Source of the DNA: Eledone cirrhosa
Lineage: Eukaryota
Length of the DNA stretch: 64,000 nt
NCBI GenBank assembly: GCA_964016885.1
Contig: OZ024741.1
Span: forward strand, 78,368,001 to 78,432,000
Reading direction: 5' to 3'
The position numbers and the translations under genes are program-made. The notes under the pieces are model-generated. The model did not search any database, was not told the DNA's origin, and worked only from the letters and a program-made list of their open reading frames with translations. Below are positions 1 through 59,422 of this stretch, one piece after another (the first letter of the stretch is position 1; every line of letters starts with the position of its first letter).

Positions 1-90
1 AACGAGCCAGAACATATATAAACAAGGTTTAGCAAATAATGAAAAAGTTTCAAAATAAATTTTAAAAAATTGACTTTACCTAATATAGTT

Positions 91-173
91 ACCTTTACCG
101 ATCGGTTTCGAATCCCAAAAATAAACGGAGGCCATAAGGCCTTCGTTGCAAAGAAAGATTCTCGTCAGAAGGT
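91..173 (-). ncRNA. Type I hammerhead ribozyme (intact core, long stem II)
   Basis: Minus strand: ACCUU-CUGACGA-GAAUC...GAUUC-GAAA-CCGAUCGG-UA-AAGGU. Stem I is ACCUU/AAGGU and stem III is the palindrome ACCGAUCGGU. Confidence 0.85.
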
Positions 174-516
174 TCTTTTCATTCGAAGAATATAAAATTC
201 TTGAATTTAAATTACGAACTAGCGCTATCCAAAACTGTTCCCGAGATGAGAGTGAATGAAGTGGAATCAATTTGTGCATAAAGGAACACATATCCTATTA
301 TTACTATTCTCCTCTATTGTTGAGAAGCAAATTTGGTCGTTCCGACTGCTGCTAGTGATAGTTGCGGCCGGTTGACCTACCTCCCTCTGCCTCTGTCTTT
401 ACTTCGGCCCTTGAAAAAATTGATTCCACTTCATTCACTCTCATCTCGGGAACAGTTTTGGATAGCGCTAGTTCGTAATTTAAATTCAAGAATTTTATAT
501 TCTTCGAATGAAAAGA

Positions 517-599
517 ACCTTCTGACGAGAATCTTTCTTTGCAACGAAGGCCGTATGGCCTCCGTTTAATTTTGGGATTCAAAACCGATTGGTAAAGGT
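517..599 (+). ncRNA. Hammerhead ribozyme copy with GAAA->AAAA (G12A) core mutation
   Basis: ACCUU-CUGACGA(522-528)-GAAUC...GAUUC-AAAA(581-584)-CCGAUUGG-UA-AAGGU. Confidence 0.75.
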
Positions 600-666
600 A
601 ACTATAGTAGGTAAAGTCAATTTTTTAAAATTTATTTTGAAACTTTTTCATTATTTGCTAAACCTT

Positions 667-702
<36 letters not shown>

Positions 703-1451
703 GATAAGAAGGGTAGAGTAGAATCCAAAGCCATGTAGTTGCAAAACGAACCTCTTAACCACACAGCCATGCATGTACGTACATTTGTGAATAACCACAA
801 GTCTATGTTAAGTGCTAAATTTGTGAAAAGTCACTAGTCTATGTTGATTGGTGCATTCTTCAATGGTTAAGAATTAGGAACTTCCTATTTACATCAGGTT
901 CTCACCTATCCCACTTCCTGGTGAGTATAAAGTCTATCTTGCTTGCATGAATATAAATATCTATACATAGAACTCTTGGTTAAGGAGATTATTTCACAAT
1001 CATGTGATCACAGGTTTCATCACATGTTGTGCTATCATGGGTTCTTGGATAAGTGTCTTTTACCATAGCTTTGGGTCACCCCCAAAATTGTGAATGAAAC
1101 TGTGTAGAGGGGAAATGTGTAGAAGTTTGGTGATAGATTGTACCTTAATTCAAAGGTCCAGCTTTGTCACATATTGTACCATTCTGATTCTGCTTGAAAA
1201 TTACATTTAATGTATACATGTTTGTGGAATACTCAGCCACTTACACATCCTCGAAACTGAGAGAGAATCCATCATGTAATGTGTGTATGTGCATTACTAT
1301 GTGTGTGTACATTATGTATGTATGTGTGTGTAATGTATGTAGACACTTTATAAAGATCAACATCAGGAATCACATAATGAAGCAATTCAAGAATGGTGTG
1401 AATGTTTCTTAAAATACAAGATGGTATTCTTGGTATTTTTCTCCCCTCTCC

Positions 1452-1483
<32 letters not shown>

Positions 1484-1778
1484 CTCTCATAGACACACAA
1501 ACACCAAAATATAGCTGACAAAAAATACATCAGGGAATTTTCTGCATACTAAAAATATAGTAAAGTCATATGTAATATATCTAAGATTATCCATGCAATT
1601 AATAGGTAAAAAATCCCCAAGAAAGTGTTTAAAATAATCTAAAAAAAATAAAGAAAAAAAATATAACAGATAATTCCAATAGAATTAGTGAAATTTTGGA
1701 AAATATACAAAATACAGTATGGGAATGTATCTTGTCTTTAAGGGCAGTTGGTGGAAGCAATTGAAATGTTTCAGTCAA

Positions 1779-1833
1779 ATTAAACCTCTTCAGCAAACAT
1801 ACTCTACTCAATTGGCAAGATTAAGAATGCTTA

Positions 1834-1891
<58 letters not shown>

Positions 1892-1973
1892 TAAGCATTC
1901 TTAATCTTGCCAATTGAGTAGAGTAGAGTAGAGCAAACATACTCTACTCAATTGGCAAGATTAAGAATGCTTA

Positions 1974-2041
<68 letters not shown>

Positions 2042-2096
2042 TAAGCATTCTTAATCTTGCCAATTGAGTAGAGTATGTTTGCTGAAGAGGTTTAAT
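1779..2096. repeat. Four alternating-orientation copies of a 35-57 bp segment separated by (TA)n
   Basis: The segment CTCTACTCAATTGGCAAGATTAAGAATGCTTAGT lies within 1779-1835 and 1931-1975; its reverse complement lies within 1890-1926 and 2040-2096. Confidence 0.9.
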
Positions 2097-2108
2097 CTAT
2101 ATATATAT

Positions 2109-4119
2109 AGAATGGGGTTGTTCCGAAGGACTGGCGTAGCAGCATCATCGTTAACTGTTATAAGGGTAAAGGAGATGCCCTAGATAGGAGTAACTATAGA
2201 GGCATTAAATTAATCGACCAGGTCATGAAGGTCACAGAAAAAGTAATAGCGCAACTAATCAGAGAGAGAATTGATCTAGATGAAATGCAGTTCGGGTTTG
2301 TGTCAGGCAAAAGTACCACAGACGCTCTTTTCATTGTACAACTACAGGAGAAGTACCTAGCTAAAAGTAAACCCCTATACTTAGCTTTTGTCGACTTGGA
2401 GAAAGCCTTCGACAGAGTCCCCCGTTCCATTATCTGATGGGCTCTTAGAAAACTAGGTGTTGACGAATGGCTTGTGAGAGCTATACAAGCCATGTATAAA
2501 GAAACAGTCAGCAAGGTTAGAATTAACAACGAATATAGTGAAGAGTTTAGCGTAAAAGTTGGCGTCCATCAGGGCTCTGTTCTCAGCCCCCTACTATTTA
2601 TTATTGCCCTTCAGGCTATAACAGAGGAGTTCAAGACCGGTTGCCCATGGGAACTCCTATACACAGATGACCTAACACTCATAGCTGAATCAATGGCCGA
2701 GCTAGAGAAGAAATTCCAAACATGGAAGCACGGCCTAGAATCAAAAGGCCTTAAAATTAACCTGGCTAAGACTAAAGTTCTAGTTTGTAAGAAAGAAAAT
2801 AAGGCGGCGGTCCCTTCCGGGAAGTGGCCATGCTCAGTGTGTAGGAAAGGCATAGGTAGAAACTCCATTTGGTGTCCCAAATGCAAAGTATGGGTGCATA
2901 AAAGATGTCGTGGGATCACAGGTAAGCTAACTTAGAACATAGATTTTACATGTGGCCGGTGCTCTGGTGCAATAAGTAGCAGCAAGTGCCCACAAAATAC
3001 TAGCTCTTTCAACTGCGCAGAGGGTTCTATAGAAATAGTGGACAGCTTCCGTTACCTGGGTGACAAAATCAGCAGTGGGGGAGGGTGCTCTGAAAGTACA
3101 GTAGCTAGAGTCAGAACTGGATGGAAAAAATCAGAGAGCTTATACCACTATTAGCCGCTAAAGGGTTCTCCCTAAAAATGAAAGGCAGGTTGTATGATGC
3201 CTGCATACGAACAGCAATGTTGCATGGCAGTAAGACCTAGGCATTGTGTGCAGAGGATATATGCAGACTAGAGAGAAATGAAGCTTGCATGCTCCGCTGG
3301 ATGTGTAATAGTAATATACGTGAACGGCAAAGCATAAACGAACTAAGGAAAAAATTAGAAATAAGAGGGATCAGATGTTGTTTACTCGAGAGAAGGCTAC
3401 GTTGGTATGGTCACGTGATGCGCATGAAGGACGATAGCTGTATAACAAAGTGCAGGGCAATAAAGATAGACGGTAGCCACGGAATAGGCAGACCCAGAAG
3501 AACCTGGGACGAGCTGATAAATTCCGACCTCACACACTTACACCTCACCAAGACAATGTCACTGGACCGAGACCTTTGGCGGTACTCAGTAATAGAGAAG
3601 ACCCGCCTTACCTAAATACAAAGTAAAACCTACTACAGTCAGTAGGCATCTTTAACAAAATACACCCCTGTCCCACCACCCCCACCCCATCCACACCGCC
3701 CCTTTCAATGTAAAGTTATGTTGGTACCACAACATCCAGGCCGAAACAAATGAGATCGTGTAGGTGTCACGTAAAAAAACACACAGTTCACGCTGTAATG
3801 TGGCCGTGTAGGCAACACGGTAAAAACCTGCCAGCCCCACACTGTAAATGTGGTTGGTGTTAGGAAGGGCATCCAGCTGTAGAAAACCCGCCAGACAGTC
3901 CACGCTGTAATGTGGGCATGTAGGCAACACGGTAAAAACCTCCCAGACCCACACTGTAAATGTGGTTGGTGTTAGGAAGGGCATCCAGCTGTAGAAAACC
4001 CGCCAGATAGTCCTATGCGAGCAAGATAATCACTCTTGCCTCAAGTGGGAAAACCCCCGTCCAAACCCATGCAAGCGTGGAACACGGATGTTAAACGTTA
4101 ATGATGATGATGATGATGA

Positions 4120-4123: not shown

Positions 4124-4195
<72 letters not shown>

Positions 4196-4314
4196 AATGA
4201 ATAATAACAGGTAGACATCATAAAAAGGTAATCTTCCCTACTTTTCTCTCTTCCTTTTCTACTCTATCTTCCCCAACAACCCCACTTAAGGGTATTTACA
4301 TTGTACATTTTACC

Positions 4315-4438
4315 ATTCTGCTCTGAGGAAACAGTGGTCACAGCATTGGATATTTGAGTTCTGCAAGTACTTGTGAATTTGCACGTAGCATAACTAGGCT
4401 GCAGTACCAACGTGGAAACACTTGTAAGCACACGGAAT
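4315..4438 (+). ncRNA. Hammerhead ribozyme-like motif in the Penelope-like element's upstream pseudo-LTR
   Basis: AUUC-UGCU-CUGAGGA(4323-4329)-long imperfect stem II-GAAA(4415-4418)-CACUUG-UA-AGCA-cacg-GAAU. The first pair of stem II is mismatched. Confidence 0.65.
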
Positions 4439-4675
4439 AAATTACCTTTTTATGATGTCTACCTGTTATTATTCATTCTTTATACACACTCCGGAATACT
4501 GAAGGATCAGGAACTAAGTTTCTTCAACAATTCTTCCATAACTCGTAGAGTAACCTCTTACCGTACGTCAACTATATCCAGTGTAGTAATTAACCATTAC
4601 TACATCTTGGATAATCCTATACCTAATAATCGCCTCCTACACAGTTGAGCAACCACACCGACACACGGCATTAAT

Positions 4676-6814
4676 ATGGAAAGGCATCATATAGGTATGT
4701 CACTTAAAAACATACCTATACCTAACAAAAGGGAATATATTCTTAGTATGATTCAACGCAATAACGACTTCATTCGGCGTGTACGATGGAAAGCTTTCCA
4801 TTTCGATAAAGGACGCACCAATCACTCGTCTGAATCATATGGTTTTAAATCATGTAAAAACCCACCTACAAACCCTCATCTCGATGCTTTCGAACAAGAT
4901 TTAATGAAAACGACCATGAACATTAAGTTCAACAAACATAGAAATAATGAGCTGCAGAACAACATGAAAGCACTACTCCGAAGATTGCAAAATACCAATG
5001 GAATTGTTGTGAAAGCTGACAAGACTTCTAACGTGTATACCATGGATATCGATACGTACAATAACTTCATACGCAACGAACTACACAAAAAATATAGAAA
5101 AACAAATGAAACTACGCTAGCAAATATTAACAACGAGGCATATAAAGTGGTGAAGAATCTCAAAATAGACGATAGAACCGAGCCGATTATACCCGCTACC
5201 CCCACCTTCAACCTGAAGGACCATAAGGTAAATTTTGACTCTAACCCTAAGATCAGACTTATATGCCCTTCTAAATCAGACATAGGGAAAATTAGCAAAC
5301 ATATACTTGACAGAGTAATAACTCAAGTGAAAAAGAAAATTGAAATTAAATTATGTGGCAACACTAGCGAAGCAATTCGCTGGTTTAATAATGTTAAGAA
5401 TAAGAATAAATCTAAGTTTATACAATTTGACATAGACGAATACTACTCTTCCATCTCACCAAGCACTCTACGTAAGGCCCTATCGTTTGCTAAGGCCAAT
5501 TCCAACCTAACGGAGGACGAAATTAATATTATTCTCGAGGCTAGAAAAACCATTATTAAGTTCGATAACTGCTACTGGGAACGTAAGGACAGACCCACAA
5601 ATTTCGATATTACCATGGGTTCCGACTCGGCGGAGGTCACGGATCTCGTGGGAATTTACATAGCCCACATATTACATAGTAAATTTAGTAATCTACAGGG
5701 GGGGATATACAGAGATGACGGGCTCTTATTAGTTAATAACTTGAATAACCAAAATCTTGAAAGGCTACGGAAAAATATTAGAAAATCTTTTAGTGAACTC
5801 GGTCTAAAAATAACATACGAATACAATCTTAAAGTAGTAAACTTTCTGGACGTAACTCTTAATTTAAATACCGGACAGATACGACCCTTCCACAAGGTAA
5901 ATGAGAACCTTACGTATATTAACTTTAACTCTAACCACCCACTCTCCATGATCAAATCAGTTCCCCGGAGTATTTCTCTTAGAATCTCTCGCCTATCGTC
6001 TAACTCTGATATTTTTAGTGAACACGCTGAATACTACAATAATGCATTAAGGAATGCTGACCACCGGGATACAATAGAATACATTGATAGGAATTTCCAT
6101 AACACACATAGCTCTACACGAAATCAAGGAATGCGTAACCGGGGGACTAAAATACAAGCACACACACACAGTACTACCAGACATACTAATAATAGAAGAT
6201 CACCACCAAATAAATCACGTTGTAGAAAGTATATCTGGTACAATTCTATTTTTAATGCCTCGATTAGTACAAAACTATCTCTTTCATTCTTTAAGTTAAT
6301 CAACAAACACTTCCCTAGTTCCCATAAATACAGCAAAATTCTGAACTCTAAAACTATTAGACTATCATACTCCACGGCACCAAACCTTGAAGCATACATA
6401 AAAAAACTTAACTTAAGGCAATTAAACAACTCTACAAAACAAAACATTTTAGTAACAGATGGGCAGAACGCAATATCTGCCTCCCAACCACTAAATGGGA
6501 GACGGGTATTACACAACCCACCTGTACCGCTATCACAACCTATCCATGGTATACCTGCTACCCACAACAAAGAATGTAACTGCCATCTACCTGAAAGATG
6601 TCCATTGAAGAATGAATGCCTAAAGTCCAACATTGTTTACCAATGCACGGTTGAATCGAACGACCAGAAATGGTATTATATCGGATCTACCACCACATCG
6701 TTTAAATCTCGCTGGTACCGTCATCGATTCTCAATCAAACATCCAAATCACCGTTTTGTGACCACGCTCGCCAACAAGACCTGGCAACTCCGTGAACACA
6801 ACCAACAGTTATAA
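4676..6814 (+). CDS. Penelope-like reverse transcriptase plus C-terminally truncated GIY-YIG endonuclease (probably Naiad-type)
   Basis: 712 aa. Motifs: SLKNIPIP..RWKA N-terminus, KADK, FDIDEYYSSI, MGS..AEV, YRDD, FLDV, CNC..CPL..CL linker, IVY..YIG..FKSR..H. Confidence 0.9.
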   Translation: MERHHIGMSLKNIPIPNKREYILSMIQRNNDFIRRVRWKAFHFDKGRTNHSSESYGFKSCKNPPTNPHLDAFEQDLMKTTMNIKFNKHRNNELQNNMKALLRRLQNTNGIVVKADKTSNVYTMDIDTYNNFIRNELHKKYRKTNETTLANINNEAYKVVKNLKIDDRTEPIIPATPTFNLKDHKVNFDSNPKIRLICPSKSDIGKISKHILDRVITQVKKKIEIKLCGNTSEAIRWFNNVKNKNKSKFIQFDIDEYYSSISPSTLRKALSFAKANSNLTEDEINIILEARKTIIKFDNCYWERKDRPTNFDITMGSDSAEVTDLVGIYIAHILHSKFSNLQGGIYRDDGLLLVNNLNNQNLERLRKNIRKSFSELGLKITYEYNLKVVNFLDVTLNLNTGQIRPFHKVNENLTYINFNSNHPLSMIKSVPRSISLRISRLSSNSDIFSEHAEYYNNALRNADHRDTIEYIDRNFHNTHSSTRNQGMRNRGTKIQAHTHSTTRHTNNRRSPPNKSRCRKYIWYNSIFNASISTKLSLSFFKLINKHFPSSHKYSKILNSKTIRLSYSTAPNLEAYIKKLNLRQLNNSTKQNILVTDGQNAISASQPLNGRRVLHNPPVPLSQPIHGIPATHNKECNCHLPERCPLKNECLKSNIVYQCTVESNDQKWYYIGSTTTSFKSRWYRHRFSIKHPNHRFVTTLANKTWQLREHNQQL

Positions 6815-6845
6815 TCCTATACCTAATATATATATATATATATAT

Positions 6846-7180: not shown

Positions 7181-8933
7181 AAAACAAAAACAAAAAATAT
7201 ATATATATATATAATGAGTACTTTCCATAATATTACATCAAGATTGACCATACGGAATGATCAATTCTAGCCGGTGGTGAACTAACAAACCTAAATAAAT
7301 AATGCTCCGATAATGTTGAGCACTTTCAGATGTAATATTAAACAGCGGCACTGACTTCAGTGTACAGCTATTGCCAGCATGGGATTAACTGATCTACTTA
7401 CCATTCAGATTTTGGCTGCTCTGTGCTTTGTCTACCGCCCACCCAATCCAATGCTGCTTCCTTGTCGGGAATATTCGGATTCCGACAAAATTCTACGTAT
7501 TATACTTAAACATGTATTGTATTGACTGAACTCTCTACTCTATACTTCAGGACTTTTTGTGATTCTCACTGAGTTCTGGGACCCGAACTTACACTAGGTA
7601 CCACCTGATACCATTCCATCTCTTCCATCCTCTATACATGTGGAGGCTTAGTAAAATCGAAGCTTTGGCTGTGGGCAAGCAAAGTCGACCTACAATATGA
7701 ATGAGTTAGCAAAGCACTCGATAAGGGTAGATCCTTAGAGTAACAACATACGTTTAAATAGCTTGACAAATTGAACATTGTGGTAGGCAAAACCTAACAC
7801 ACAATACCAGAGCAACGAAAAAACTAATAGGTTAAAAAAGATACACCTGGACAAATTAAACGTTTAAAGTGTTTCTGTGAACCCGAAATCATATATCCGA
7901 CTTACCTAACAAGCACGCTCGTGGTATTCCATGACGAACAGAGGATTCATTTCATCAACAGGAGTTCTGTTCTGTCCAAAAGCGAGGTGGATTTTAAATG
8001 CTGCCGCTATGAGTGAGCTGAACGCACATTAAGTTATCACGTGTTATTTCCAACAAGGGAAGCAACCCTCGGTTTTATATATATATATCAAAATTATCAC
8101 AGGGGTACGAAATGCAGGTTAAAATAGCTATAATGTTATTGCCGGAAATAGCTATGATGAAACTTCTGGTATTTAAGCCAAGTTCTCACTTTTAAGTAAC
8201 CTCACTTTGCAGATATCTTCTCACTATGCTGGTCTCTGCAACATCTGACTGTGCAGTAGCTGTGTTATTATGGTGCTACTCTGGCATTTATCACATATGT
8301 GCAATTATTGGATCTTACTCCATGGATTATACCTTAGATTTTGTTTGTTCTATTTGATTGTGATTGTAATAACACATTGAGCTTTATAACTTCTTGGCAT
8401 ATCACAGTATAGTAGATCTGATTACTTGTTAAATTTGTTTATATATATATCAATGTGTTAGGAAAAACAGGCAAGGTGTGAGTAGAAAAACTTATTCAAT
8501 TACACATTCTAATGTGTTTCATCATCGAATTACATCACAATGTCTATGTGAGCTGTTTAGAGATATTAATTGCTCCAATCACTGTGATTTCAGGGTCCAG
8601 TTATAGCTGCCACTGTATAGTGAAGGAGCCATTTCAAAACTGGCTTCTCATAGGGTGCCAGGACAAAATTACGAAAATAACTGTTATCCCACTATATTTG
8701 GTTTTAATATAGCAGGCTAATGTTTTTTGCGTAAATACACTAAATAAGCTCTCTTGCAATAGAGTCAGCATTGTTTTCGTAGTTACACACATATACATGG
8801 CTGTGTGGTTAAGGAGTTTGCTCCCCCAACCATGTGATTTTGACATCACTCTGATTGTACAACACCAAGAGCAAGTGTCTTGCACTATTATAGCCTTCGG
8901 TTGACTAATACCTTTGGAATTAAATTTGATAAA

Positions 8934-11189
8934 GAGTGAGGTGTTCAGGATTGCTAGGCAATGTGTCAAGGAAAACCGTGATATTGTCGGGGAGAAGTGT
9001 GTCCTTAATGATGATGGTGTACTTGCCATCACTGACTCTGATAAGAAGGTAGCTTGGAAGTGTCACTACGAAAGGCTACTAAATGAGGAGAATAAATGGG
9101 AGAAAGACAGTCTCCCCCACATCGATCCAATAGAGGGACCAGCAGTGCAAGTTGAAGGTAGTATAATAAGTAAGGCAATCAAAGATATGAAGACGGGTAA
9201 GGTGGCTGGGCCTTCGGAAATAGTTGCTGAAATGCTGAAAGCATCTGGAACGGTGGGACATACTATGGTCACCCGGATAGTAAACCAAGTCATACAGAAT
9301 GGGGTCGTACCGAAGGACTGGCATAGCAGCATCATCATTAACTGCTACAAGGGTAAAGGAGATGCCCTAGATAGGGGAAACTATAGAGGCATTAAATTAA
9401 TTGACCAGGTCATGAAGGTCACAGAAAAAGTAATAGCGCAACTAATCAGAGAGCGAATTGATCTAGATCAAATGCAGTTCGGGTTTGTGTCAGGTAAAGG
9501 TACCACAGACGCTCTTTTCATTGTACGACAACTACAGGAGAAGTACCTAGCTAAAAGTAAACCCCTATACTTAGCTTTTGTGGAGAAAGCCTTTCACAGA
9601 GTCCCCCGCTCCATTATCTGGTGGGCTCTTAGAAAACTAGGTGTTGATGAATGGCTTGTGAGAGCTATACAACCCATGTATAAAGAAACAGTCAGCAAGG
9701 TTAGAATTAACAACGAATATAGTGAAGAGTTTAGCGTAAAAGTTGGTGTTCATCAGGGCTCCGTTCTTAGCCCCCTACTATTTATTATTGGCCTTCAGGC
9801 TATAACAGAGGAGTTCAAGAACGGCTGCCCATGGGAACTCCTATACGCAGATGATCTTACGCTCATAGCTGAATCAATGGCCGAGCTAGAGAAGAAATTC
9901 CAAACATGGAAGCATGGCCTAGAATCAAAAGGCCTTAAAATTAACCTGGCTAAGACTAAAGTTCTAGTTTGTAGGAAGGAAAATAGGGCACTTGTCCCAT
10001 CTGGTAAATGGCCATGCTCAGTGTGTAGGAAAGGAGTAGGCGGAAACTCCATTTTATGTCCCAAATGCAAAGTAAGGGTGCATAAAAGATGTAGTGGGAT
10101 CACAGGTAAGCTAACAAAGAATATAGATTTTATATGTGGCCGGTGCTCTGGTGCAATAAGTAGCAGCAAGTGCCCACAGAATACTAGCTCATTCCATTGC
10201 ACAGATGGTTTTATAGAAATAGTGGACAGCTTCCGTTACCTGGGTGACAAAATCAGCAGTGGTGGAGGGTGCTCTGAAAGAACAGTAGCTAGACTCAGAA
10301 CGGGATGGAAAAAGTTCAGAGAGCTTATACCACTATTGGCCGCTAAAGGGTTCTCTCTAAAAATGAAAGGCAGGCTGTATGATGCCTGCATACGAACAGC
10401 AATGTTACATGGCAGTGAGACTTGGGCATTGTGTGCAGAGGATATACGCAGACTGGAGAAGAACGAAGCTTGCATGCTCCGTTGGATGTGTAATAGTAAT
10501 ATACGTGAACGGCAAAGCATAAATGAACTAAGGGAGAAATTAGGAATAAGAGGGATCAGATGTTGTTTACTCGAGAGAAGACTATGTTGGTATGGTCACG
10601 TGATGCGCATGAAAGACGACAGCTGTATAAAAAAGTGCAGGGCAATAAAAATAGACGGTAGCCACGGAGTAGGCAGACCCAGAAAAACCTGGGACGACTT
10701 GATAAATTCTGACCTCACACACTTACACCTCTCCAAGACAATGTCACTGGACCGAGATCTTTGGCACTACACAGTAATACAGAAGACCCGCCTTGCCTAA
10801 GTACAAAGCGAAACCTACAGTCAGTAGGCACCTCTTAACAAAAATACACCCCCGTCCCACTACCCCCACCCCATCCACACCACCCCTTTCGATGTAAAGT
10901 TATGTTGGTGTCACAACATCCAGCCCGAAATAAATGAGGTCGTGTAGGTGTCACAACAAAAAAACACACAGTCCACGCTGTAATGTGGCCGTGTAGGTAA
11001 CACGGTAAAAACCTCCCAGTCCACACTGTAAACGTGGTTGGTGTTAGGAAGGGCACCCAGCCGTAGAAAACCCGCCAGACAGTCCTATACAAGCAAGACA
11101 ACCAATCTTGCCTCAAGTGGGAAAATCCCGTCAAAACCCATGCAAGCGTGGAAGATGGACGTTAAACGATGATGATGATGATGATGATG
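8934..11189 (+). mobile_element. 5'-truncated RTE-clade LINE with an open RT region
   Basis: ORF 8914-10800 (628 aa) has YADD and a Cys-rich finger but no endonuclease, and lacks DL in FVDLEKAF. (GAT)n tail present. Confidence 0.95.
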
Positions 11190-12844: not shown

Positions 12845-13320
12845 ATATAAATATAAGTATGTATACGTACATACATATATGTATACAGACGTACAGTAGT
12901 ATGTATATATATATACATACATGCACACATATATATATGTACGTATATTATGCATATTAACGTTAATATGCATAAGGAAAGTATATACTTTCAAACGTTC
13001 AATCGACTGACAGGAAGGTATACGGTGCTGATGACAACTAATAAGCTAGAAACTAGTTCATCGTTCCTTTGTCAGTGTTGAACAAAAGGGCAACGATGGT
13101 TGCCGAACACTGTACGTCATAATAAATGTTCGGTAAACATAATAATAACATCATAATAAATGTTTGGTAAATCCATACGTACGCATATATATGTGTGCAT
13201 GTATGTATATATATACATACTACTGTACGTCTGTATACATATATGTATGTACATATACATACTTATATTTAATTATCAGCCGCACTAAGAGTGAGAAATG
13301 AAATTTCATTTTTTCCATTT
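12845..13320 (+). mobile_element. Non-coding hammerhead-bearing element with a partial inverted 3' copy (same family as 33155-34150)
   Basis: 12845-12945 is the reverse complement of ~13175-13270. The body matches 33835-34150 and 33483-33729. Confidence 0.8.
13022..13064 (+). ncRNA. Type I hammerhead ribozyme (weakened stem II)
   Basis: ACGGUG-CUGAUGA-CAACUAAUAAGCUA-GAAA-CUAG-UU-CAUCGU. Confidence 0.7.
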
Positions 13321-19082: not shown

Positions 19083-19544
19083 TATTTAACATGACCAAAG
19101 GTATGTGTGGGCGAGATAATACACAATTCTCTGCACACTGCAGTCTTAATAACTGTAGCTGTGAAGAATATTGCACAGAAACAGAATCCGTCCAGGAGAT
19201 AGATACATAACGTATCTCTACCAAAACACAGCCACTGCACTCGCTATTTAACTATTATGTATGCACTCAAAACATTGAGATGCAGTTTTACTACTGCAAC
19301 CTTATTGATTCATTGAGTGAGTGAGTCATTGCTGGAGATAGTTGAAATAACATCAGTCATTTTTGTATACCTTGTATATATATATATATATATATAGATT
19401 TTGAGTTTATGTTAGTTGTATACCAACACCTCAGTGTGCAGGCTGGAGCACTCGACGAAGTGCGCAGGTTGGTTTGGTTACTCCGGAGTAGTGTAAAATA
19501 AAGTTAAATAAAAGTCAAATGATTAAAATTTAGCTTCGTTTATT

Positions 19545-19599
19545 ACTGCTATATATATTTCAGTGACAGCCATCTTTGGCTGTGACCTCTTCAGGCAGT
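19545..19599 (-). ncRNA. Type I hammerhead ribozyme (canonical core)
   Basis: Mirror copy of 19779-19833. Confidence 0.85.
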
Positions 19600-19778
19600 T
19601 TGAATTAGTATGGTATAGACAAGTACATATGTTGTTTAGGTGTATGATATTGTCAATACTCTGATATGCCCAGTTCCTCAGTGAATTAACAACCCAACAA
19701 GGAACTCGGCATATCAGAGTATTGACAATATCATACACCTAAACAACATATGTACTTGTCTATACCATACTAATTCAA

Positions 19779-19833
19779 ACTGCCTGAAGAGGTCACAGCC
19801 AAAGATGGCTGTCACTGAAATATATATAGCAGT
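19779..19833 (+). ncRNA. Type I hammerhead ribozyme (canonical core)
   Basis: ACUGC-CUGAAGA-GGUCACAGCC aaagau GGCUGUCACU-GAAA-UAUAUA-UA-GCAGU, followed immediately by AAUAAA. Confidence 0.9.
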
Positions 19834-19996
19834 AATAAACGAAGCTAAATTTTAATCATTTGACTTTTATTTAACTTTATTATATATATATATATATATA
19901 TTTATTGAATGTCAGCAGTGTGAAGACCGGGAGAACCAGAAATAATAGTAGTCGATGCATGGTGGGATGCAGATTGGGTATATTAATAAGATGGAT

Positions 19997-20052
19997 ATTC
20001 GACAGCGAGCTCGTGTGGTTTCAGCTTAACTTTGATGGGCTTCTTCAGGAAT
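19997..20052 (-). ncRNA. Type I hammerhead ribozyme candidate (GUC site)
   Basis: Minus strand: AUUC-CUGAAGA-AGC...GCU-GAAA-CCACACGAGCUCGCUG-UC-GAAU. Confidence 0.7.
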
Positions 20053-31738: not shown

Positions 31739-31968
31739 TTAACCCTTTAGTATTTAAACCGGCCAGAATTCTCTCACCTCTTTCTGTTTAAACCAGCTGT
31801 GACTAACCACTCATACTTATGTTAAGGTGTTGTTCTCAAAATATATAATATAAAAATCTCATAGGTTCGATATTATGTGAGATAATTATGAGATAATTAT
31901 GTGAGATAAAGTGTTTACCATGAAAATACAATAGTAAATATAGAGTAATGTAAATGTTAAAGGGTTAA
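31739..31968 (+). mobile_element. piggyBac-type MITE inserted in the left arm of a hairpin
   Basis: TTAA-CCCTTTAG...TAAAGGG-TTAA. Removing it rejoins 31717-31742 to 31969-32005, which mirrors 32007-32068. Confidence 0.85.
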
Positions 31969-32197
31969 GCAAAGAATCGCTGCTTTCACTCTTGACGGGA
32001 TCTTCAGAAGATCCGTTAAGAGTGAAAGCAGCGATTCTTTGCTTAAACTTTAATCTGTTATTTTAATATACATACACACATATTTATACATAATCATACA
32101 TACCGATGCAAAACAAGGTCGCTCATCTCAGTTATATAATTTCATATCAGATAGTCCACCGTGTGAGTTCTGTCACAAACTTAACTCAATCCACTGT

Positions 32198-32517: not shown

Positions 32518-32586
<69 letters not shown>

Positions 32587-32792
32587 TTTCTGAATTTGTT
32601 TAGCAAGATTCTTTATCTGAAAAAGTGTGTTGAAACTGATATTGTTATACTTTGGGAGGGTCATGTTGCCAATAAGAAACACACGCACCAGTTGCTTTCA
32701 CTTCAATTTATTATAATAAATTTATAAATTTAGGAATTTATAAATTTCCGGTTGGTTGGTTGGTTCCACAACCAGATGATTGTTTATATATT

Positions 32793-32835
32793 GTCAAAGT
32801 TCTTTCGTCACACATTCTGTGACCTCTTCAGTGAC
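32793..32835 (-). ncRNA. Hammerhead ribozyme candidate (mirror of 32948-32990)
   Basis: Reverse complement of 32948-32990. Confidence 0.65.
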
Positions 32836-32947
32836 TGGGGATTCTTTTCTTTGTTTTTGTGCCTCTCTTTTGTTCTGTCCTACGCCATCTTGTTTTTGTG
32901 TGTGTCAGAACAAAAGAGAGGCACAAAAACAAAGAAAAGAATCCCCA

Positions 32948-32990
32948 GTCACTGAAGAGGTCACAGAATGTGTGACGAAAGAACTTTGAC
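32948..32990 (+). ncRNA. Minimal hammerhead ribozyme candidate with one extra G after A9
   Basis: GUCA-CUGAAGA-g-GUCACA gaaug UGUGAC-GAAA-GAAC-UU-UGAC. Confidence 0.7.
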
Positions 32991-33412
32991 AATATGTAAA
33001 CAATCATCTGGTTGTGGAACCAACCAACCAACCGGAAATTTATAAATTCCTAAATTTATAAATTTATTATAATAAATTGAAGTGAAAGCAACTGGTGCGT
33101 GTGTTTCTTATTGGCAACATGACCCTCCCAAAGTATAACAATATATATATATATATGGAAAAAATGAAATTTCATTTCTCACTCTTAGTACGGCTGATAC
33201 TTAAATATAAGTATGTATACGTACATACATATATGTATACAGACGTACAGTAGTATGTATATACATACATACATGCACACATATATATATGTACGTATGT
33301 TTACCGAACATTTATTATAATGTTCGGTTTGTTTGTAAACAAACAGCCCGAATTAAGCCGTACAGTGTGTTCGGCAATCATCATTGTCCTTTTGTTCAAC
33401 ACTGACAAAGGA

Positions 33413-33455
33413 ACGATGAACTAGTTTCTAGCTTCTTAGCTGTCATCAGCACCGT
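33413..33455 (-). ncRNA. Type I hammerhead ribozyme
   Basis: Minus strand: ACGGUG-CUGAUGA-c-AGCU aaga AGCU-a-GAAA-CUAG-UU-CAUCGU. 6-bp stem I, palindromic stem III, C.A mismatch at the base of stem II. Confidence 0.75.
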
Positions 33456-33900
33456 ATACCTTCCTGTCAATCGATTGAACGTTTGAACAAAAAGGCAATG
33501 ATGGTTGCCGAACACACTGTACGGCTTAATTCGGGCTGTTTGTTTACAAACACACCGAGCATTATAATAAATGTTCGGTAAACCCATACGTACATATATA
33601 TATGTGTGCATGTATGTATGTATATACATACTACTGTACGTCTGTATACATATATGTATGTACGTATACATACTTATATTTAAGTATCAGCCGTACTAAG
33701 AGTGAGAAATGAAATTTTATTTTTTCCATTTATCGTTTTCGGTACACTGGCCGACTAACTCACTCGATATGCAAATTATGCATCATCATCATCATCATCA
33801 TCGTTTAACGTCCATATTCCAGGCTTGCATGGGTATTAACGTTAATATGCATAAGGAAAGTATATACTTTCAAACATTCAATCGATTGACAGGAAGGTAT

Positions 33901-33941
33901 ACGGTGCTGATGACAGCTAATAAGCTAGAAACTAGTTCATC
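33901..33941 (+). ncRNA. Type I hammerhead ribozyme
   Basis: (AC)GGUG-CUGAUGA-CAGCUAAUAAGCUA-GAAA-CUAG-UU-CAUC. Confidence 0.72.
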
Positions 33942-34162
33942 CTTCCTTTGTCAGTGTTGAACAAAAAGGCAACGATGGTTGCCGAACACACTGTACGGCT
34001 TAATTTGGGCTGTTTGTTTACAAACAAACCGAACATTATAATAAATGTTCGGTAAACCCATACGTACATATATATATGTGTGCATGTATGTATATACATA
34101 CTACTGTATGTCTGTATACATATATGTATGTACGTATACATACTTATATTTATATATATATA

Positions 34163-37100: not shown

Positions 37101-37662
37101 ATGAAAGTCGATAGCTGTATAACAAAGTGCAGGGCAATAAAGATAGACGGTAGCCACGGAATAGGCAGACCTAGAAAAACCTGGGACGAGCTGATAAACT
37201 CCGACCTCACACACTTACACCTCTCCAAGACAATGTCACTGGACCGAGACCTTTGGCGGTACTCAGTAACAGAGAAGACCCGCCTTGCCAGTAGGCATCT
37301 CTAACAAAATACACCCCGTCCCACCACCACCACCCCCACCCCATCCACACCACCCCGTCCTATGTAAAGTTATGTTGGTGCCGCGCCATCCGGGCCGAAA
37401 CAAATGAGATCGTGTAGGTGTCACGACAAAAAAACACACAGTCCACGCTGTAATGTGGCCGTGTAGGCAACACGGTAAAAACCTCCCAGACCCACACTGT
37501 AAATGTGGTTGGTGTTAGGAAGGGCATCCAACTGTAGAAAACCTGCCAGACAGTCCTATGCGAGCAAGACAATCACTCTTGCCTCAAGTGGGACTACCCC
37601 CGTCCAAACCCATGCAAGCGTGGAACACGGACGTTAAACGTTGATGATGATGATGATGATGA
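34163..37662 (+). mobile_element. Near full-length RTE-clade LINE inserted in (TA)n
   Basis: Short 5' region, a single long ORF, ~350-bp 3' UTR and (GAT)n tail, with (TA)n on both flanks. Confidence 0.97.
34317..37304 (+). CDS. RTE LINE protein: APE endonuclease, reverse transcriptase and PHD-like Cys/His finger
   Basis: 995 aa. Motifs: IQETRW, SAYAPQ, GDLNGHVG, QVDYIL, SQHR; FVDLEKAFD, QGSVLSP, YADD, FRYLG; CSVC..CPKC..WVHKRC..CGRC. The frame stays open upstream to 34203 (GTINVGTL). Confidence 0.97.
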   Translation: MLERKEVDVCCIQETRWRGGSARFIEGKKRCYKLFWVGNDDGLGGVGIMVAEKWADKIIDVNRVNDRIIKIRLVLNRTTVTVISAYAPQSGLPGTIKDRFYETLMLTTSQISDSDYIIIAGDLNGHVGQHCDGYDEIHGGYGFGTRNEEGSRILEFCDANNLTICNTNFKKRDNHLITYRSGEHTSQVDYILTRRRDRVSVVNTKSLPHEECTSQHRLIISDLIVRSRRTRQQKRTILRRKIWKLKDPTAKNKFQNILLDAFDSKEEHLESDNIEGQWEFLKANLLLATDEVCGWSRPVGRRRVTWWWNSKVEESIKAKKQAWKVWRDGGSRVDYQVARREARREVYLARREAEERKFKHVLQRDDQKREVFRIARQCVKENRDIVGEKCVLNDDGILAITDTDKKAAWKCHYERLLNEENKWEKDSLPHVDPIEGPAVLVEGSIISKAIKDMKTGKAAGPSEIVAEMLKASGTVGHTMVTRIVNQVVQNGVVPKDWHSSIIVNCYKGKGDALDRSNYRGIKLIDQVMKVTEKVIAQLIRERIDLDEMQFGFVSGKSTTDALFIVRQLQEKYLAKGKPLYLAFVDLEKAFDRVPCSIIWWALRKLGVDEWLVRAIQAMYKETVSKVRINNEYSEEFSVKVGVHQGSVLSPLLFIIALQAITEEFKTGCPWELLYADDLTLIAESMAELEKKFQTWKHGLESKGLKINLAKTKVLVCRKENKAAVPSGKWSCSVCRKGVGRNSILCPKCKVWVHKRCSGITGKLTKNIDFTCGRCSGAISSSKCPQTTSSFNCAEGSIEIVDSFRYLGDKISSGGGCSESTVARVRTGWKKFRELIPLLAAKGFSLKMKGRLYDACIRTAMLHGSETWALCAEDIRRLERNEACMLRWMCNSNIRERQSINELRKKLEIRGIRCCLLERRLRWYGHVMRMKVDSCITKCRAIKIDGSHGIGRPRKTWDELINSDLTHLHLSKTMSLDRDLWRYSVTEKTRLASRHL

Positions 37663-37709
37663 TATATATATATATTTAAAAAATAGAGGTGTGACACACG
37701 AATTGTGAT

Positions 37710-37949
37710 ATATTAGTAAAAAGGAAAAGAAAATGGTGACAAATTTTTCCCAGTGAAAAATAATTTAATTAGGAATAAGTATAAATTAGTAATAAGTATT
37801 AGTTAGTATTCAGTTTTAGTTTTAAGTTTTTACCGGTTGCGCATTTCTAATGCTTTTCAAAAATAATTCTGAGATAAAGCGCTCGTGATTTTTGCTCTAA
37901 ACTTAAAACTAAAACTGAAAAATTTGTCAGCATTTTTTTTTCCTTTTTA

Positions 37950-37955
<6 letters not shown>
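37710..37955. repeat. Imperfect AT-rich inverted repeat beside (TA)n
   Basis: TATTAGTAAAAAGGAAAA...GACAAATTTTTC pairs with GAAAAATTTGTC...TTCCTTTTTACTAATA, and TTCAGTTTTAGTTTTAAGTTT pairs with AAACTTAAAACTAAAACTGAA. Confidence 0.75.
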
Positions 37956-37992
<37 letters not shown>

Positions 37993-38836
37993 GAAAATAT
38001 AAAAATTAATGTGAGCAAGAAGCCAACAGTATTTCATAATATATAAGTGACTATAACGTCAAAATGGAAAATAATTAACATAAGATATGGGAAAATAATT
38101 CAAACTCAATTAAAAAAAAAATCAAGACAGAGATTTTATCCACGGATTTTGTGAAATCCAAGGAAAAAAATCAATAGAGTCTTAACTCAGAATAAAATAA
38201 AGTTTAAATACTCATCCTTCAATTTGGAAAAACTACAAATGCTCTATATAGTCTTAAAAAGACTATTTCACGAAACTTTTCAGTGGGATTGGTTACGGTT
38301 GGAACCGTTCCTCAGTAGAGCTCAAACACGATAACCCAAAGGACCACTGCTAAAATATGCCAAAAAGGGAATTTAAAAGCAGGCTAGTTCACCTCGTGCG
38401 GAATTATGAAAATAAACACACATGGAGAGACATGGCTGGTGACGTCAGAATGAGACGAATGTCTATTTACAAGAAACAGCAGTCAAAAACATTCCGAAAA
38501 AACTCTACAAAATGTAAGGAGTTCAGCAAAATAGCAATATTATCGTGTTTTTTTTTTTTAAAAAAGACCGGGATTAGTCACAAATAATTTTAAGCACTCT
38601 AGGAAAAATTCTGAGTATAAATATAAATGAAAATATAGAAATTAATGTGAGCAAGAAGCCAACAGTATTTCATAATATATATATATATACAAGTGGAAGC
38701 TTAGTAAAATCGAGGTTTTGGCTGTGGCCAAGCTTACGACCTACAATTAGGAATGAGCAGCAAAGCACTCAATAAGGTTGCAGGCCTTAGTGTAATAACA
38801 TACGTTTAGACAGCTTGACAAATTGAAAATTGCGGC

Positions 38837-50121: not shown

Positions 50122-50211
50122 AAATGCTTCTCTGATGATCGTTGCTTTTCCATTAATATCCTCGTGATATTTAATGTTTTGCACCGTGAAACTGTACAGT
50201 TAGGGCCATTT
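50122..50211 (+). ncRNA. Type I hammerhead ribozyme candidate with long stem II, in a ~450-bp segment between (TA)n tracts
   Basis: AAAUGCUUCU-CUGAUGA(50132-50138)-uCGuUGC..CAUUAAUAUC/GAUAUUUAAUG..GCAcCGu-GAAA-CUGUACAG-UU-AGGGCCAUUU. Stem III is the palindrome ACUGUACAGU. Confidence 0.7.
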
Positions 50212-54222: not shown

Positions 54223-54265
54223 ATATATATATATATATATTGAAAAATGTGTGAGATCCTTGGTA

Positions 54266-54446
54266 TTTGAAAAAAGGAAAATAATGACTTCACTTGAAGT
54301 TGGTATTCTATAACAATTTCATTTTATAATTTTACAATTTTATATTTTATGATTTTGCTATGTAGGAGGTACATAGCAAAATTATAAAATTAAATTGTTA
54401 TAGAATACCAACTATAAGTGAAGTCATTATTTCCCCTTTTTCAAAT
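54266..54446. repeat. Imperfect palindrome between (TA)n tracts
   Basis: TTTGAAAAA..AATAATGACTTCACTT..GTTGGTATTCTATAACAATTT is mirrored around GCTATGTA ggagg TACATAGC. Confidence 0.85.
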
Positions 54447-54490
54447 ATATATGTACATATGTATATGCATATACATATGTACATATATAT

Positions 54491-56347: not shown

Positions 56348-56681
56348 TGTGGTGTTAGTCCTTTAAGGAACTGAAAGCATATGCTTTCAGTTCCTTAGAG
56401 GACTAACACCACACTCTGGATCTGAACATATCAATGAATTAACAAGGTAAAATCTATTATTCCTGTTTTTTCTGTTCAAGTTCTTACTGCATGATGAGGT
56501 CATAGCTGTTGAATAATGGCGATCACTGAAATATATATAGCAGCGAATATGAATAAACGAAGGTAATTTATCCTCTTGAATTACGCTTCTTGTTTTTACA
56601 TTGCTCCTGTTTAAACAGACCAACCTGCGCACTTCGTTGATGCTCCAACCTGCATATTGAAGTGTTGGTAAACACATACTC

Positions 56682-56690
<9 letters not shown>
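56348..56690 (+). mobile_element. Diverged relative of the 19395-19880 element: a 66-bp hairpin followed by a degenerate hammerhead; ends at (TA)n
   Basis: Hairpin at 56348-56413. Motif ACUGC-AUGAUGA-GGUCA..CACU-GAAA-UAUAUA-UA-GCAG at 56486-56543. 56595-56690 matches the reverse complement of 19398-19497. Confidence 0.75.
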
Positions 56691-56730
<40 letters not shown>

Positions 56731-57094
56731 TACATATATTCATAACTACAGTGAACTTCTTTGTTTCCTTACAACTTTTGTAAAAAGTCGTATTTTGCAG
56801 ATATAATTTCTGAATGTGTGAAGTATGATTACGATGATAATATTGAAAAAAAATATTGCCATTTTTACTCATGGAAGCTACTGGAACCATTTGTATGTAT
56901 TTCTATCTTTTTGTCTATTTATCTACCCATCTGTTTTTCTAGCATCCATCAATCCATATCTATCAGTCCATTTTTCTCTTTCTCTATCTACCCCCCCCCC
57001 CCCCCCCCCACCGTCCTTGCCTCTCTCTCTGTGAGTGTATGTAATCTAATTTTTCAAAAGAAAAAAATCAAATATGAAATTAATTGAAAAAAGT

Positions 57095-57100
57095 TTTATT
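57095..57100 (-). terminator. Candidate polyadenylation signal of the fuzzy gene
   Basis: AATAAA on the minus strand ~200 nt after the stop codon. Confidence 0.45.
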
Positions 57101-57301
57101 AAGCTACAAACATCAATACATTTTGTGTGTGTGTGTTAGAAGGAATGACGTTTTTTACATAAGAAATAACATTTTTGTTAAGATTAAAGAAATCTGTTAC
57201 TTATCAACCAAAACTAAAAGTGAAGTTCTATAACAAATCCTCTTTGGTTGGATTTGTAACAATTGTGATTAAGAAAAGATTTCTATTATTGGTAACTCCT
57301 G

Positions 57302-58567
57302 TTAAATTTGAATGGATTTATCTTTAGTAAGCATAGACAGTGTCTTCTGTGTGACACTGCGCATGGCATATGTTGGAACATCATTGTTATAAAGAATAAA
57401 GAATTGATATGGTAGAGACTGAATGGCATAGCACTTGTGGGTGTTTGTTATAATGTAGGTCTCTGTAGCATTGTGGCTCAATTTGGAAGGATCTGTGTTA
57501 CTCTGATCAATTGTGGAAGTAAAAAATGAACCGATGATCTGATGATAGAAACTTCTCAAGATTTCTATCCGTTTTTTTCTGGATAAAGTTTTTTTGTCTT
57601 TAGTTTCTTCTAGCTCTGGTGAAATCGTACTCAGGCATCGGTGAGTTTCATTATTTAGTAACAGAAACCCAAGGATGTTTGGATCAATGGGTGTTGTCAT
57701 TTGAAAATTTTGTGGATAAACTTGATGTACTGATTTCAAAGTGTCAAGAGCTGGTTTCCAGAACCTTGTTATTTCTCTCTCTAGTTTTCCTAAAGTTGGG
57801 TTTGAACCACATAAGAGACATACTTGGACATCTTTTATCAAGTTGAAAATGAGTAGACGATATGGAACTGTAGGACTTTCATCCGTCAAGTATATAGGTA
57901 TATCTTGGGAAATGCACTTTGAAAGCTTTTTGGTTGAGGTGGAGGCATTCACTGTTGATGAATCAGCCAACATATTAAGTAGTATTAGCTCAGTTGCAGA
58001 TAAATTCCACCACCTGCGTGTTGCAATAGCAACCTTTTTGTGGACTGTTAAACACCCAAAGGGTGTTTCTGTGGCATCACAAAAAGCATCCAAGAAGTTT
58101 TGAAGCGGAAGGCAGTCAGGTGCTGAAATGATTTCAACAGTGTTTGTCATAGCAGAGAAACAAGCACTGTTCACTTGGTTCAACAGGTCATCAATCAGTT
58201 TAAAACAGACTTTAATTTCATTTTTGAACCTTTCTGGATTTTTAATGTTAAAAACTTCTTCTTGACCACAGAAAAAAACAATAACATTGAAGATGATTCT
58301 CAGAAAGTTTCCAATATGGCAGTCTGAGATGTAATATTCATCAGTAATTAGTATCAAAGTAATGCTGTCCTGAAATACTTTCCAAAACACTTTAGAATTT
58401 TCTGTAGTAGTTGACTGCAGTTCCATATCTCTTGAGGCAGCAAACATTTGAATACCATTTAATGTACCAATGAGTGGGAAGGGAAGCTGCCGTTTAGTTC
58501 CTTTGTTTCGTGTAAATAGTGGCACACCTCCACATGTTGTCAAGCACATTAAACTACAAGCCTCCAT
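57302..58567 (-). CDS. FUZ: Protein fuzzy homolog (planar cell polarity / CPLANE effector with longin domains); uninterrupted CDS
   Basis: 421 aa. Motifs: N-terminal LMCLT..GGVPLFTR...LPFPLIGTLNG..MF, WKVFQDSITLIL, AT..WWNL, DIPIYL...SPTVPYRLL...L...V.VCLLCG..P.L. Kozak-like ACCATGG. Confidence 0.9.
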   Translation of the reverse strand: MEACSLMCLTTCGGVPLFTRNKGTKRQLPFPLIGTLNGIQMFAASRDMELQSTTTENSKVFWKVFQDSITLILITDEYYISDCHIGNFLRIIFNVIVFFCGQEEVFNIKNPERFKNEIKVCFKLIDDLLNQVNSACFSAMTNTVEIISAPDCLPLQNFLDAFCDATETPFGCLTVHKKVAIATRRWWNLSATELILLNMLADSSTVNASTSTKKLSKCISQDIPIYLTDESPTVPYRLLIFNLIKDVQVCLLCGSNPTLGKLEREITRFWKPALDTLKSVHQVYPQNFQMTTPIDPNILGFLLLNNETHRCLSTISPELEETKDKKTLSRKKRIEILRSFYHQIIGSFFTSTIDQSNTDPSKLSHNATETYIITNTHKCYAIQSLPYQFFILYNNDVPTYAMRSVTQKTLSMLTKDKSIQI

Positions 58568-58652
58568 GGTTGTTAACTGATTTTAATACATGTGCATTGA
58601 CAATACAACTTGCATTTACACCTTGATGACTGACAAACCGAACACAGACTTG

Positions 58653-58682
58653 CTAAATGTAAAAAACAAAACAAAAATAAAA
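58653..58682 (-). other. 3' splice acceptor in the fuzzy 5' UTR
   Basis: Minus strand TTTTATTTTTGTTTTGTTTTTTACATTTAG|, 85 nt upstream of the ATG. Confidence 0.65.
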
Positions 58683-59081
58683 CATTGTTAGATCACTGTC
58701 ATGATAATAGGGATCCTTACATTTCCCCAGCCAGATAACATACATCTGAATGATATATACTCTATATACTCGTGTATAAGGTGCATTTTTTCTACAAAAA
58801 CATGATCTGAAAAACCAGCATGTAGACTTATCTATTGGATCTACAAAACATAAATTCAAAATACATTATAAATGTTTTTGTAAAATGGATGTGACTTATC
58901 TATCTGTGACATACACATGAATACATATGGTATATATATATATATATATATATATGGATGTATATATAATGTATTTTGCAATACACTTTATGCTTAATTA
59001 AAAGCATTTTGAAGACCGTAAGCTATTGTTTTAAAGTAGTGACAAATTCACTCACTTTGATCTCAGCAAACAGGGGAGATA

Positions 59082-59125
59082 AGCCGACAAGACTTGTTTC
59101 GCTTTGGTTGAAGCTTATCAAGGCC
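59082..59125 (-). ncRNA. Hammerhead ribozyme, U3-A8 core variant (mirror copy)
   Basis: Reverse complement of 59219-59262. Confidence 0.7.
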
Positions 59126-59218
59126 AACTACCCCACCTGTTTACTGAGATCATTGATGTTATATTCTTATAGAAATCTAGTAAATAATCAGGAGCTGATT
59201 ATGCAGAGCGGGGTAGTT

Positions 59219-59262
59219 GGCCTTGATAAGCTTCAACCAAAGCGAAACAAGTCTTGTCGGCT
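59219..59262 (+). ncRNA. Hammerhead ribozyme, U3-A8 core variant
   Basis: GGCC-UUGAUAA-GCUU caacca AAGC-GAAA-CAAGuCUUG-UC-GGCU. Confidence 0.75.
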
Positions 59263-59422
59263 TATCTCCTCTGTTTGCTGAGATCAAAGTGAGTGAATTT
59301 GTCACTACTTTAAAACAATAGCTTACGGTCTTCAAAATGCTTTTAATTAAGCATAAAGTGTATTGCAAAATACATTATATATACATCCATATATATATTG
59401 CTATTTCAAAGCTCCAATTCTA

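Follow-up and report, generated by a model that had tools for sequence, protein, structure and literature searches.

Outward-facing hammerhead palindromes of Eledone cirrhosa have the layout of Penelope-like element insertions

We have analysed a 64,000-nt stretch of the 3.0-Gb genome of Eledone cirrhosa (contig OZ024741.1, positions 78,368,001 to 78,432,000; the whole stretch is called the window), in which four long inverted repeats carry hammerhead ribozyme motifs that face outward towards (TA)n tracts. This locus raises the question of whether such a layout is selected, as in a viroid-like RNA transcribed in both directions, or is a by-product of integration, which a preliminary description of the window had left undecided. 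Our results answer it in favour of the by-product. The observed layout is the known insertion pattern of Penelope-like elements (PLEs), which is common across the genome and is shared by new retrozyme families. Accordingly, neither the layout nor the kind of RNA element is new, and we are highly confident that the palindromes are by-products of PLE-type insertion.

Palindromes and ribozymes in the window

The inverted repeats lie where they had been described, at 14-278/412-676 (arms 97% identical), 19494-19678/19700-19884 (99%), 32639-32877/32906-33144 (one mismatch, 100% when rounded) and 58946-59134/59210-59398 (99%), the arms being 1-5 changes apart. The elements themselves exceed the palindromes: one arm carries a tail of 26-109 nt, and the loop is part of one arm. 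These insertions, together with those of a fifth family and a PLE copy, consist of the following features.

1-273, minus strand: family 1 left arm with 109-nt tail (putative retrozyme monomer of 485 nt), starting 96 nt before the window
281-676, plus strand: family 1 right arm, short end, followed by (TA)15
96-168, minus strand: type I hammerhead of the family 1 left arm, intact core, long stem II
522-594, plus strand: family 1 hammerhead with G12A change, predicted inactive
19396-19678, minus strand: family 2 left arm with 98-nt tail, pseudo-long terminal repeat (pLTR) of a putative Hydra-type PLE; hammerhead 19550-19594
19670-19881, plus strand: family 2 right arm, short end, 9-nt junction overlap; hammerhead 19784-19828
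32585-32905, minus strand: family 3 left arm with 61-nt tail, 3' untranslated region (UTR) of a PLE with CX4CxxC linker; hammerhead 32797-32831
32906-33145, plus strand: family 3 right arm, short end; hammerhead 32952-32986; junction unique in the genome
33155-33487, minus strand: family 5 left arm, long end (putative retrozyme monomer of ~424 nt); hammerhead 33419-33449
33483-34152, plus strand: family 5 right arm, short end, more than one unit; hammerhead 33907-33937
12845-13320, plus strand: second family 5 insertion, with a short inverted arm without ribozyme and a direct arm with a damaged motif at 13028-13058
58946-59211, minus strand: family 4 left arm, short end (putative retrozyme monomer of 316 nt); U3-A8 hammerhead 59086-59121
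59210-59429, plus strand: family 4 right arm with 26-nt tail; U3-A8 hammerhead 59223-59258
4189-6826, plus strand: putative Hydra-type PLE copy between (TA)n tracts, with 44-nt inverted arm, pLTR and hammerhead 4323-4426

With a descriptor of the type I hammerhead (core CTGANGA or TTGANAA, plus GAAA, plus three stems), we found 11 matches in the window and 0-1 in each of 20 shuffles. In all four palindromes the left arm holds the minus-strand motif and the right arm the plus-strand one, and their (TA)n flanks are real, both as had been reported. The claim of a type I hammerhead in both arms stands for the presence of the motifs, of which seven of eight have an intact core, but not for the right arm of 14-676, whose core is broken by AAAA in place of GAAA. 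The motif of 58946-59398 is the U3-A8 core variant. For the fifth family the same polarity had been claimed; it is seen at 33155-34152, with motifs on both strands, whereas 12845-13320 carries a motif on one strand only.

Two kinds of ribozyme families

We searched the genome with one arm per palindrome, scored the best 40 of 105-1968 candidates and retrieved 30 loci per search. The first family 4 query contained the junction, which biases it towards inverted loci. After 31 loci that duplicated the place of another were dropped, 165 loci were kept (one array is counted twice).

Families 2 and 3 are the 3' ends of endonuclease-positive (EN+) PLEs. At other loci their arms run directly into open reading frames (ORFs) with reverse transcriptase (RT) and GIY-YIG domains, whose motifs could be read directly (L199 for family 2, L197 for family 3). 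At L199, the order is an inverted 1.2-kb copy, a short pLTR, an open stretch of 860 codons and a 3' pLTR, so that family 2 is a PLE pLTR; a frameshift lies upstream (N-terminal) of the open stretch, and RWK is in frame before the shift. At L197, family 3 is the 3' UTR that follows the ORF with RT plus GIY-YIG, and at locus L119 a longer family 3 palindrome has ORF pieces in both arms. The copy at 4189-6826 has an RT ORF (4649-6814) that breaks off within the GIY-YIG domain, where it is joined to a short piece of the long end of the pLTR; a Pfam search with this ORF gave no match. A pLTR in partial tandem or inverted, with an optional tail, occurs in families 2 and 3 and in 4189-6826. Family 2 and 4189-6826 share RWK, DKT, a CxCX5C linker and one cysteine between GIY and YIG, and lack CCHH, motifs that would place them with the Hydra clade. 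Family 3 combines a CX4CxxC linker with a pair of cysteines in the stretch from GIY to YIG; these motifs may place it as Neptune/Nematis type, the two not being told apart.

On the other side, families 1, 4 and 5 consist of monomers in tandem (485, 316 and ~424 nt), with one type I hammerhead per unit, a GC content of 34-38% and arrays of up to 26 units. At the loci retrieved, no PLE ORF was contiguous with their arms. By structure (tandem monomer, type I hammerhead per unit, no ORF), these three families would be non-long-terminal-repeat (non-LTR) retrozymes. Among hammerheads of family 4 type, 97% of cells are paired and four of 12 pairs have double changes (16 sequences chosen from 48 variants), counts that are inflated by sequence kinship. 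No RNA data set was listed as containing the family 1 monomer, a result that is uninformative on expression. Families 2 and 3 are contiguous with PLE ORFs, whereas families 1, 4 and 5 share a single 18-nt match with the three PLE 3' regions compared. These three families show the same insertion signature as the PLE families, as given below; the retrozyme repeats likely ride on PLEs. The earlier view of microsatellite-associated, PLE-linked ribozyme elements agrees with the (TA)n contact and with the PLE ORFs at families 2 and 3, but a single class of non-coding palindromic element does not exist here, two families being ends of coding PLEs and three being tandem monomers.

Insertion grammar and the origin of the arms

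The 165 loci contain 96 junctions of a minus-strand arm followed by a plus-strand arm (head-to-head) and none of the reverse order (tail-to-tail). In 60 evenly spaced 10-kb samples (contigs C1, C3-C7), same-family neighbours on opposite strands face outward in 9/9 cases. The outward polarity noticed in the window is thus genome-wide. Each family has two fixed end sites, 26-109 nt apart, and a long end is paired with a short end in 67 of the 73 classifiable inverted insertions, four being long/long and two short/short, where independent choice would give at most half (p = 4e-14); for the family 4 loci gathered after the junction-containing query, the pairing is 18/20. Classified ends touch (TA)4 or more in 135 of 166 cases, compared with 6.7% of random positions. 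The junctions themselves differ from locus to locus: 91 of the 96 coordinate pairs are distinct and four pairs recur at 2-3 loci, while the family 3 junction of the window occurs once in 3.0 Gb. Accordingly, each palindrome was built at insertion. Overlap at the 72 flush or overlapping junctions averages 3.1 nt, compared with 0.93 nt in 960 simulated joins, and the 8-nt and 16-nt overlaps are palindromes at the junctions. Where a long end is paired with a short one (67 insertions), the arm that extends further 5' is the tail-less one in 31 cases and the tailed one in 26, the two being level in 10; reach is here physical length and some arms have internal deletions. The two arms of one insertion diverge by 1.1% in family 4 and 1.7% in family 2, compared with 2.6% and 3.3% between different insertions.

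We consider it probable that the palindromes are head-to-head insertions of two 5'-truncated copies of a PLE or of a tandem ribozyme repeat, likely made by cutting both strands of a (TA)n tract and copying RNA from each end. The long-end/short-end rule suggests separate copying of each arm, from one of the cut ends of the target, and the details of a two-primer model seem to us rather more plausible than not. In this model, the Penelope enzyme would cut both strands of the (TA)n tract, and each cut end would prime its own antisense cDNA, one from the long and the other from the short internal start site, on the same RNA or on sister RNAs. The two cDNA 3' ends would then anneal over a few complementary bases (microhomology) and be filled in. 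Because each cut end would prime antisense cDNA, the left arm would be minus and the right arm plus, and because both outer ends would be RNA 3' sides, the ribozymes would be obliged to face outward, with no selection on polarity. A hammerhead would be present in both arms only through its position 55-220 nt upstream of the start sites. The ribozyme would act on ordinary sense transcripts, giving unit-length or circular RNA, and not on the hairpin. The portions of Frangieh 2024 (PMC11167929) consulted report that the purified Poseidon PLE protein cleaves and extends both strands, uses two internal start sites, which delimit the tail, and works without ribozyme cleavage. A broader proposal, to which we give even weight for and against, is that a Penelope enzyme dimer primes two cDNAs coordinately at both start sites of one RNA and joins them head to head, that retrozymes including circular monomers are integrated likewise, and that a few hundred thousand hammerheads are the record of this mechanism.

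In family 2, 10 of 49 arms start within an 8-nt palindrome (-125 to -119), and a CCAAT motif lies ~65 nt upstream of it. In family 3, several arms start near a motif that we take to be YY1-like. Both are likely transcription starts, in which case the short palindromes would be copies of the uncleaved 5' leader. None of the 49 family 2 arms has its 5' end at the ribozyme cut site (positions 40-50), but the query kept matched arms from ending there; in family 1, four arms end within 8 nt of the cut site, a number too small to judge. In the heterogeneous arrays L183 and L184, the partner arm matches the outermost unit. Array L195 consists of nine identical 485-nt units, as a circular template read repeatedly would give, although assembly polishing could also produce them.

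Several observations weigh against the reading as two separately copied arms. The start site was alike on both strands in vitro, so that the pairing rule lacks an explanation from that work, as far as its consulted parts show (Frangieh 2024, PMC11167929). Of the 96 inverted insertions, 23 could not be classed, an end being damaged or beyond the locus edge, and 24 junctions have a gap. The difference in arm divergence is small, at 2.1 vs 2.3% in family 3 and 4.9 vs 5.9% in family 5, and gene conversion could also make arms similar. When we asked which unit of an array the partner arm copies, the informative loci gave 12 outermost, nine inner and two ties. The loci are best matches to the window copies, which favours young copies, and the single 18-nt match of families 1, 4 and 5 to the three PLE 3' regions leaves these families with no autonomous partner found. 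Separately, a search for empty sites, aimed at whether (TA)n predates the insertion, gave no collinear flanks in the sequence compared.

An alternative is that one nucleic acid primes itself and folds back into a hairpin, after which endonuclease resolution trims the tail off one arm. Self-priming on an antisense template has been proposed for PLEs (Arkhipova 2013, PMC3846280), as has a tail from endonuclease-mediated resolution (Craig 2021, PMC8557442), both as given in the sections of these papers that we consulted. Fold-back would predict near-identical arms, palindromes at junctions such as the 8-nt and 16-nt overlaps, and exactly one tail. However, the tail ends coincide with the RT start sites found in vitro in the consulted part of Frangieh 2024 (PMC11167929). 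Moreover, copying back along one target-primed cDNA cannot tail the shorter arm, and this class makes up 31/67 of the insertions and 6/21 in the two linear families; fold-back survives only if the hairpin is made before attachment to the target. We therefore regard it as doubtful, though the strongest competitor to separate copying. It is far less likely that the palindromes have no relation to retrotransposition and arose as fold-back artefacts of assembly or through cruciform rearrangement at (TA)n. The palindromes at 1779-2096 and 30478-30816, with TA-rich centres and perfect arms outside the PLE grammar, would suit this explanation, and none of the reads on family 2 and family 3 palindromes bridged the junctions of the window itself; contigs of one sample contain joints at other positions of family 3 (depth 8-54, sides below 31 nt), which were left out of the counts. 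But the arms of the window differ by 1-5 changes, and artefacts would yield neither one polarity in 96/96 nor the long/short rule in five families.

The least probable explanation, to which we give hardly any credence, is that selection maintains the palindrome as a mobile ambisense RNA element that is transcribed in either direction and cleaves itself like a viroid-like RNA; the preliminary description had found the layout reminiscent of such RNAs. It is true that both arms often have an intact core and that four junction pairs recur at 2-3 loci. Nevertheless, 91 of 96 junction pairs are distinct, and the pair seen three times lies on an 8-nt palindrome at which 5' ends pile up. Arm lengths range from less than 50 nt to 4.9 kb, one arm core in the window is already dead, and the monomers carry one motif on one strand. 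In hairpins predicted by minimum-energy folding of each palindrome on either strand, the ribozyme bases are paired to the other arm (70/73, 45/45, 35/35 and 36/36), and transcription in either direction would begin with the antisense arm. A defined unit with a ribozyme on each strand that is copied whole is rejected because the junctions are locus-specific. The same junctions already largely refute the ambisense mobile reading, which is left without support.

Known systems, hammerhead load and neighbouring features

The insertion pattern of PLEs is in print. In the parts consulted, Craig 2021 (PMC8557442) describes inverted copies that are truncated at the 5' end, a tail on one side only, and (TA)n as the target, and Arkhipova 2013 (PMC3846280) gives head-to-head as the usual arrangement. 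On the one hand, our insertions share with these EN+ PLE insertions the inverted 5'-truncated copy head to head with a direct copy, the tail at one end, the (TA)n targets and the hammerhead in the pLTR. On the other hand, tails are 26-109 nt here and 30-40 nt there, the long/short pairing is counted here (67/73), and three of the five families have no ORF. RWK, DKT, CxCX5C, the one GIY-YIG cysteine and the TA flanks of the Hydra clade, as given in that portion of Craig 2021, also occur in family 2 and 4189-6826; family 3 differs in CX4CxxC and two cysteines, as described there for Neptune/Nematis.

With metazoan non-LTR retrozymes (Cervera and de la Pena 2020, PMC7229834; Li et al. 2026, bioRxiv 10.64898/2026.07.22.740005; both consulted in part), families 1, 4 and 5 share the tandem arrangement of units a few hundred nt long, each with a single type I hammerhead, as well as a low GC content (34-38%) and PLEs alongside. 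They differ in that the arrays here, known from DNA alone, switch strand and end at two fixed (TA)n sites. In the main text of PMC7229834 the word 'inverted' has no occurrence; in Li et al. 2026 its one occurrence is in the title of a reference, and 'tail' is absent. For minimal PLE hammerheads, the sections consulted of Cervera and de la Pena 2014 (PMC4209133) report the U3-A8 core and pairs of hammerheads on opposite strands, 100-700 bp apart, which is the layout of the window. The short palindromic stem III, the unpaired base 5' of stem II and the U3-A8 variant are shared; rules for polarity or ends are not given in those sections, and several window motifs differ in having a long, branched stem II. 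In the literature searched (open-access main texts, supplements aside), we came across neither a count behind the end rule nor a mention of non-nested arms or of retrozyme arrays in inverted form.

What our study adds is thus the long/short rule (67/73), the non-nested arms (31/67), the same grammar in retrozyme arrays and an extrapolated hammerhead load. The residual interest is mechanistic. The formation of tandem and inverted PLE insertions is named as an open question in the consulted part of Craig 2021 (PMC8557442), and PLE mobilisation of animal retrozymes has so far been based on co-occurrence and phylogeny. The end-pairing rule, the non-nested arms and the signature common to ORF-less families allow both questions to be tested on genomic data, and they point to exact start sites that an in vitro assay could use.

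A 600-kb sample from six large contigs contains 71 hammerhead motifs, an 11-unit array and a few matches that are probably due to chance among them, compared with 2-9 in three shuffles, and extrapolates to ~330,000 motifs per genome (bootstrap 190,000-500,000). The 71 motifs come from many unrelated families, several with the U3-A8 core, and PLE ORF pieces occur in 25 of the 60 samples. If the coordinated-dimer proposal were true, this load would exceed the axolotl's up to 120,000 retrozyme copies, a figure taken from the consulted part of PMC7229834 and obtained with a descriptor unlike ours.

The window holds ~18 hammerhead motifs, ~13 of which have an intact core and recognisable stems, so that the earlier count of about 17 was fair. 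Beyond the insertions listed above, they include the following.

38247-38315, minus strand: further hammerhead motif, descriptor match, absent from the preliminary description
50132-50201, plus strand: solo hammerhead motif in a TA-flanked insert
20001-20048, minus strand: weak solo hammerhead candidate
56491-56539, plus strand: degenerate (C3A) relative of family 2, 74% identity over 194 nt

Of the solo motifs described before, 50132 passes the descriptor, and 20001 passes weakly and does not fold. The motifs at 56491, ~28760 (U4G) and 1762-1793 (no monomer stem III) are degenerate, the latter two as judged by eye. The motif at 4323-4426 has an intact core and an 85-nt stem II domain that is kept in all 16 family motifs found; we therefore rejected the idea that it is a remnant that lacks stem II. 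A relaxed descriptor that allows one core mismatch gives chance matches, some within the Fuzzy ORF, and serves to describe known candidates only. In an Rfam scan, hammerhead matches were limited to two sub-threshold HH9 hits (E 0.095 and 0.16), the remaining matches being microsatellite-driven miRNA entries.

The Hydra-type pLTR at 4193-4640 (L261-L275) has 2702 candidates, of which those scored are 97-99% identical, and its copies end at three sites or more (163, 305, 508). A diverged family 4 array of 26 units (L181-L182, G000:C1:293635000-293643500) contains an exact duplication of a 6-unit block, either a higher-order repeat or an assembly duplication. Different families are nested in each other's TA tracts (L122, L126, L015), and families 3 and 5 abut at 33141-33156. 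The palindrome at 30478-30816 has 143-nt perfect arms and a TA/CA-rich centre within an old low-copy repeat, whose other copies are 71-80% alike, with one short match higher; we looked for a hammerhead in it and found none, and the PLE grammar does not explain it. At 1779-2096, two adjacent TA-centred perfect palindromes, of which the left has a weak hammerhead and the right half of one, are interrupted by an RTE-type long interspersed nuclear element (LINE); the palindromes may stem from fold-back at (TA)n or be an assembly effect. The short hairpins at 31957-32053 and 56348-56413 have their fold-back point in or beside hammerhead-like sequence, and L237 is similar, with motifs 18 nt apart.

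Among the neighbouring features, 57302-58582 (minus strand), at a distance of 360 nt from the family 4 palindrome, is an uninterrupted 426-codon ORF with the three longin domains of FUZ/MON1/HPS1. An open 1033-codon LINE ORF at 34203-37304 encodes an apurinic/apyrimidinic (AP) endonuclease, an RT and then a PHD finger, and shorter copies of it lie at 2105-4097 and 8905-11167. Short inverted ends adjoining (TA)n at 31141-31494, 37708-37958 and 54264-54447 are probably further PLE-type insertions.

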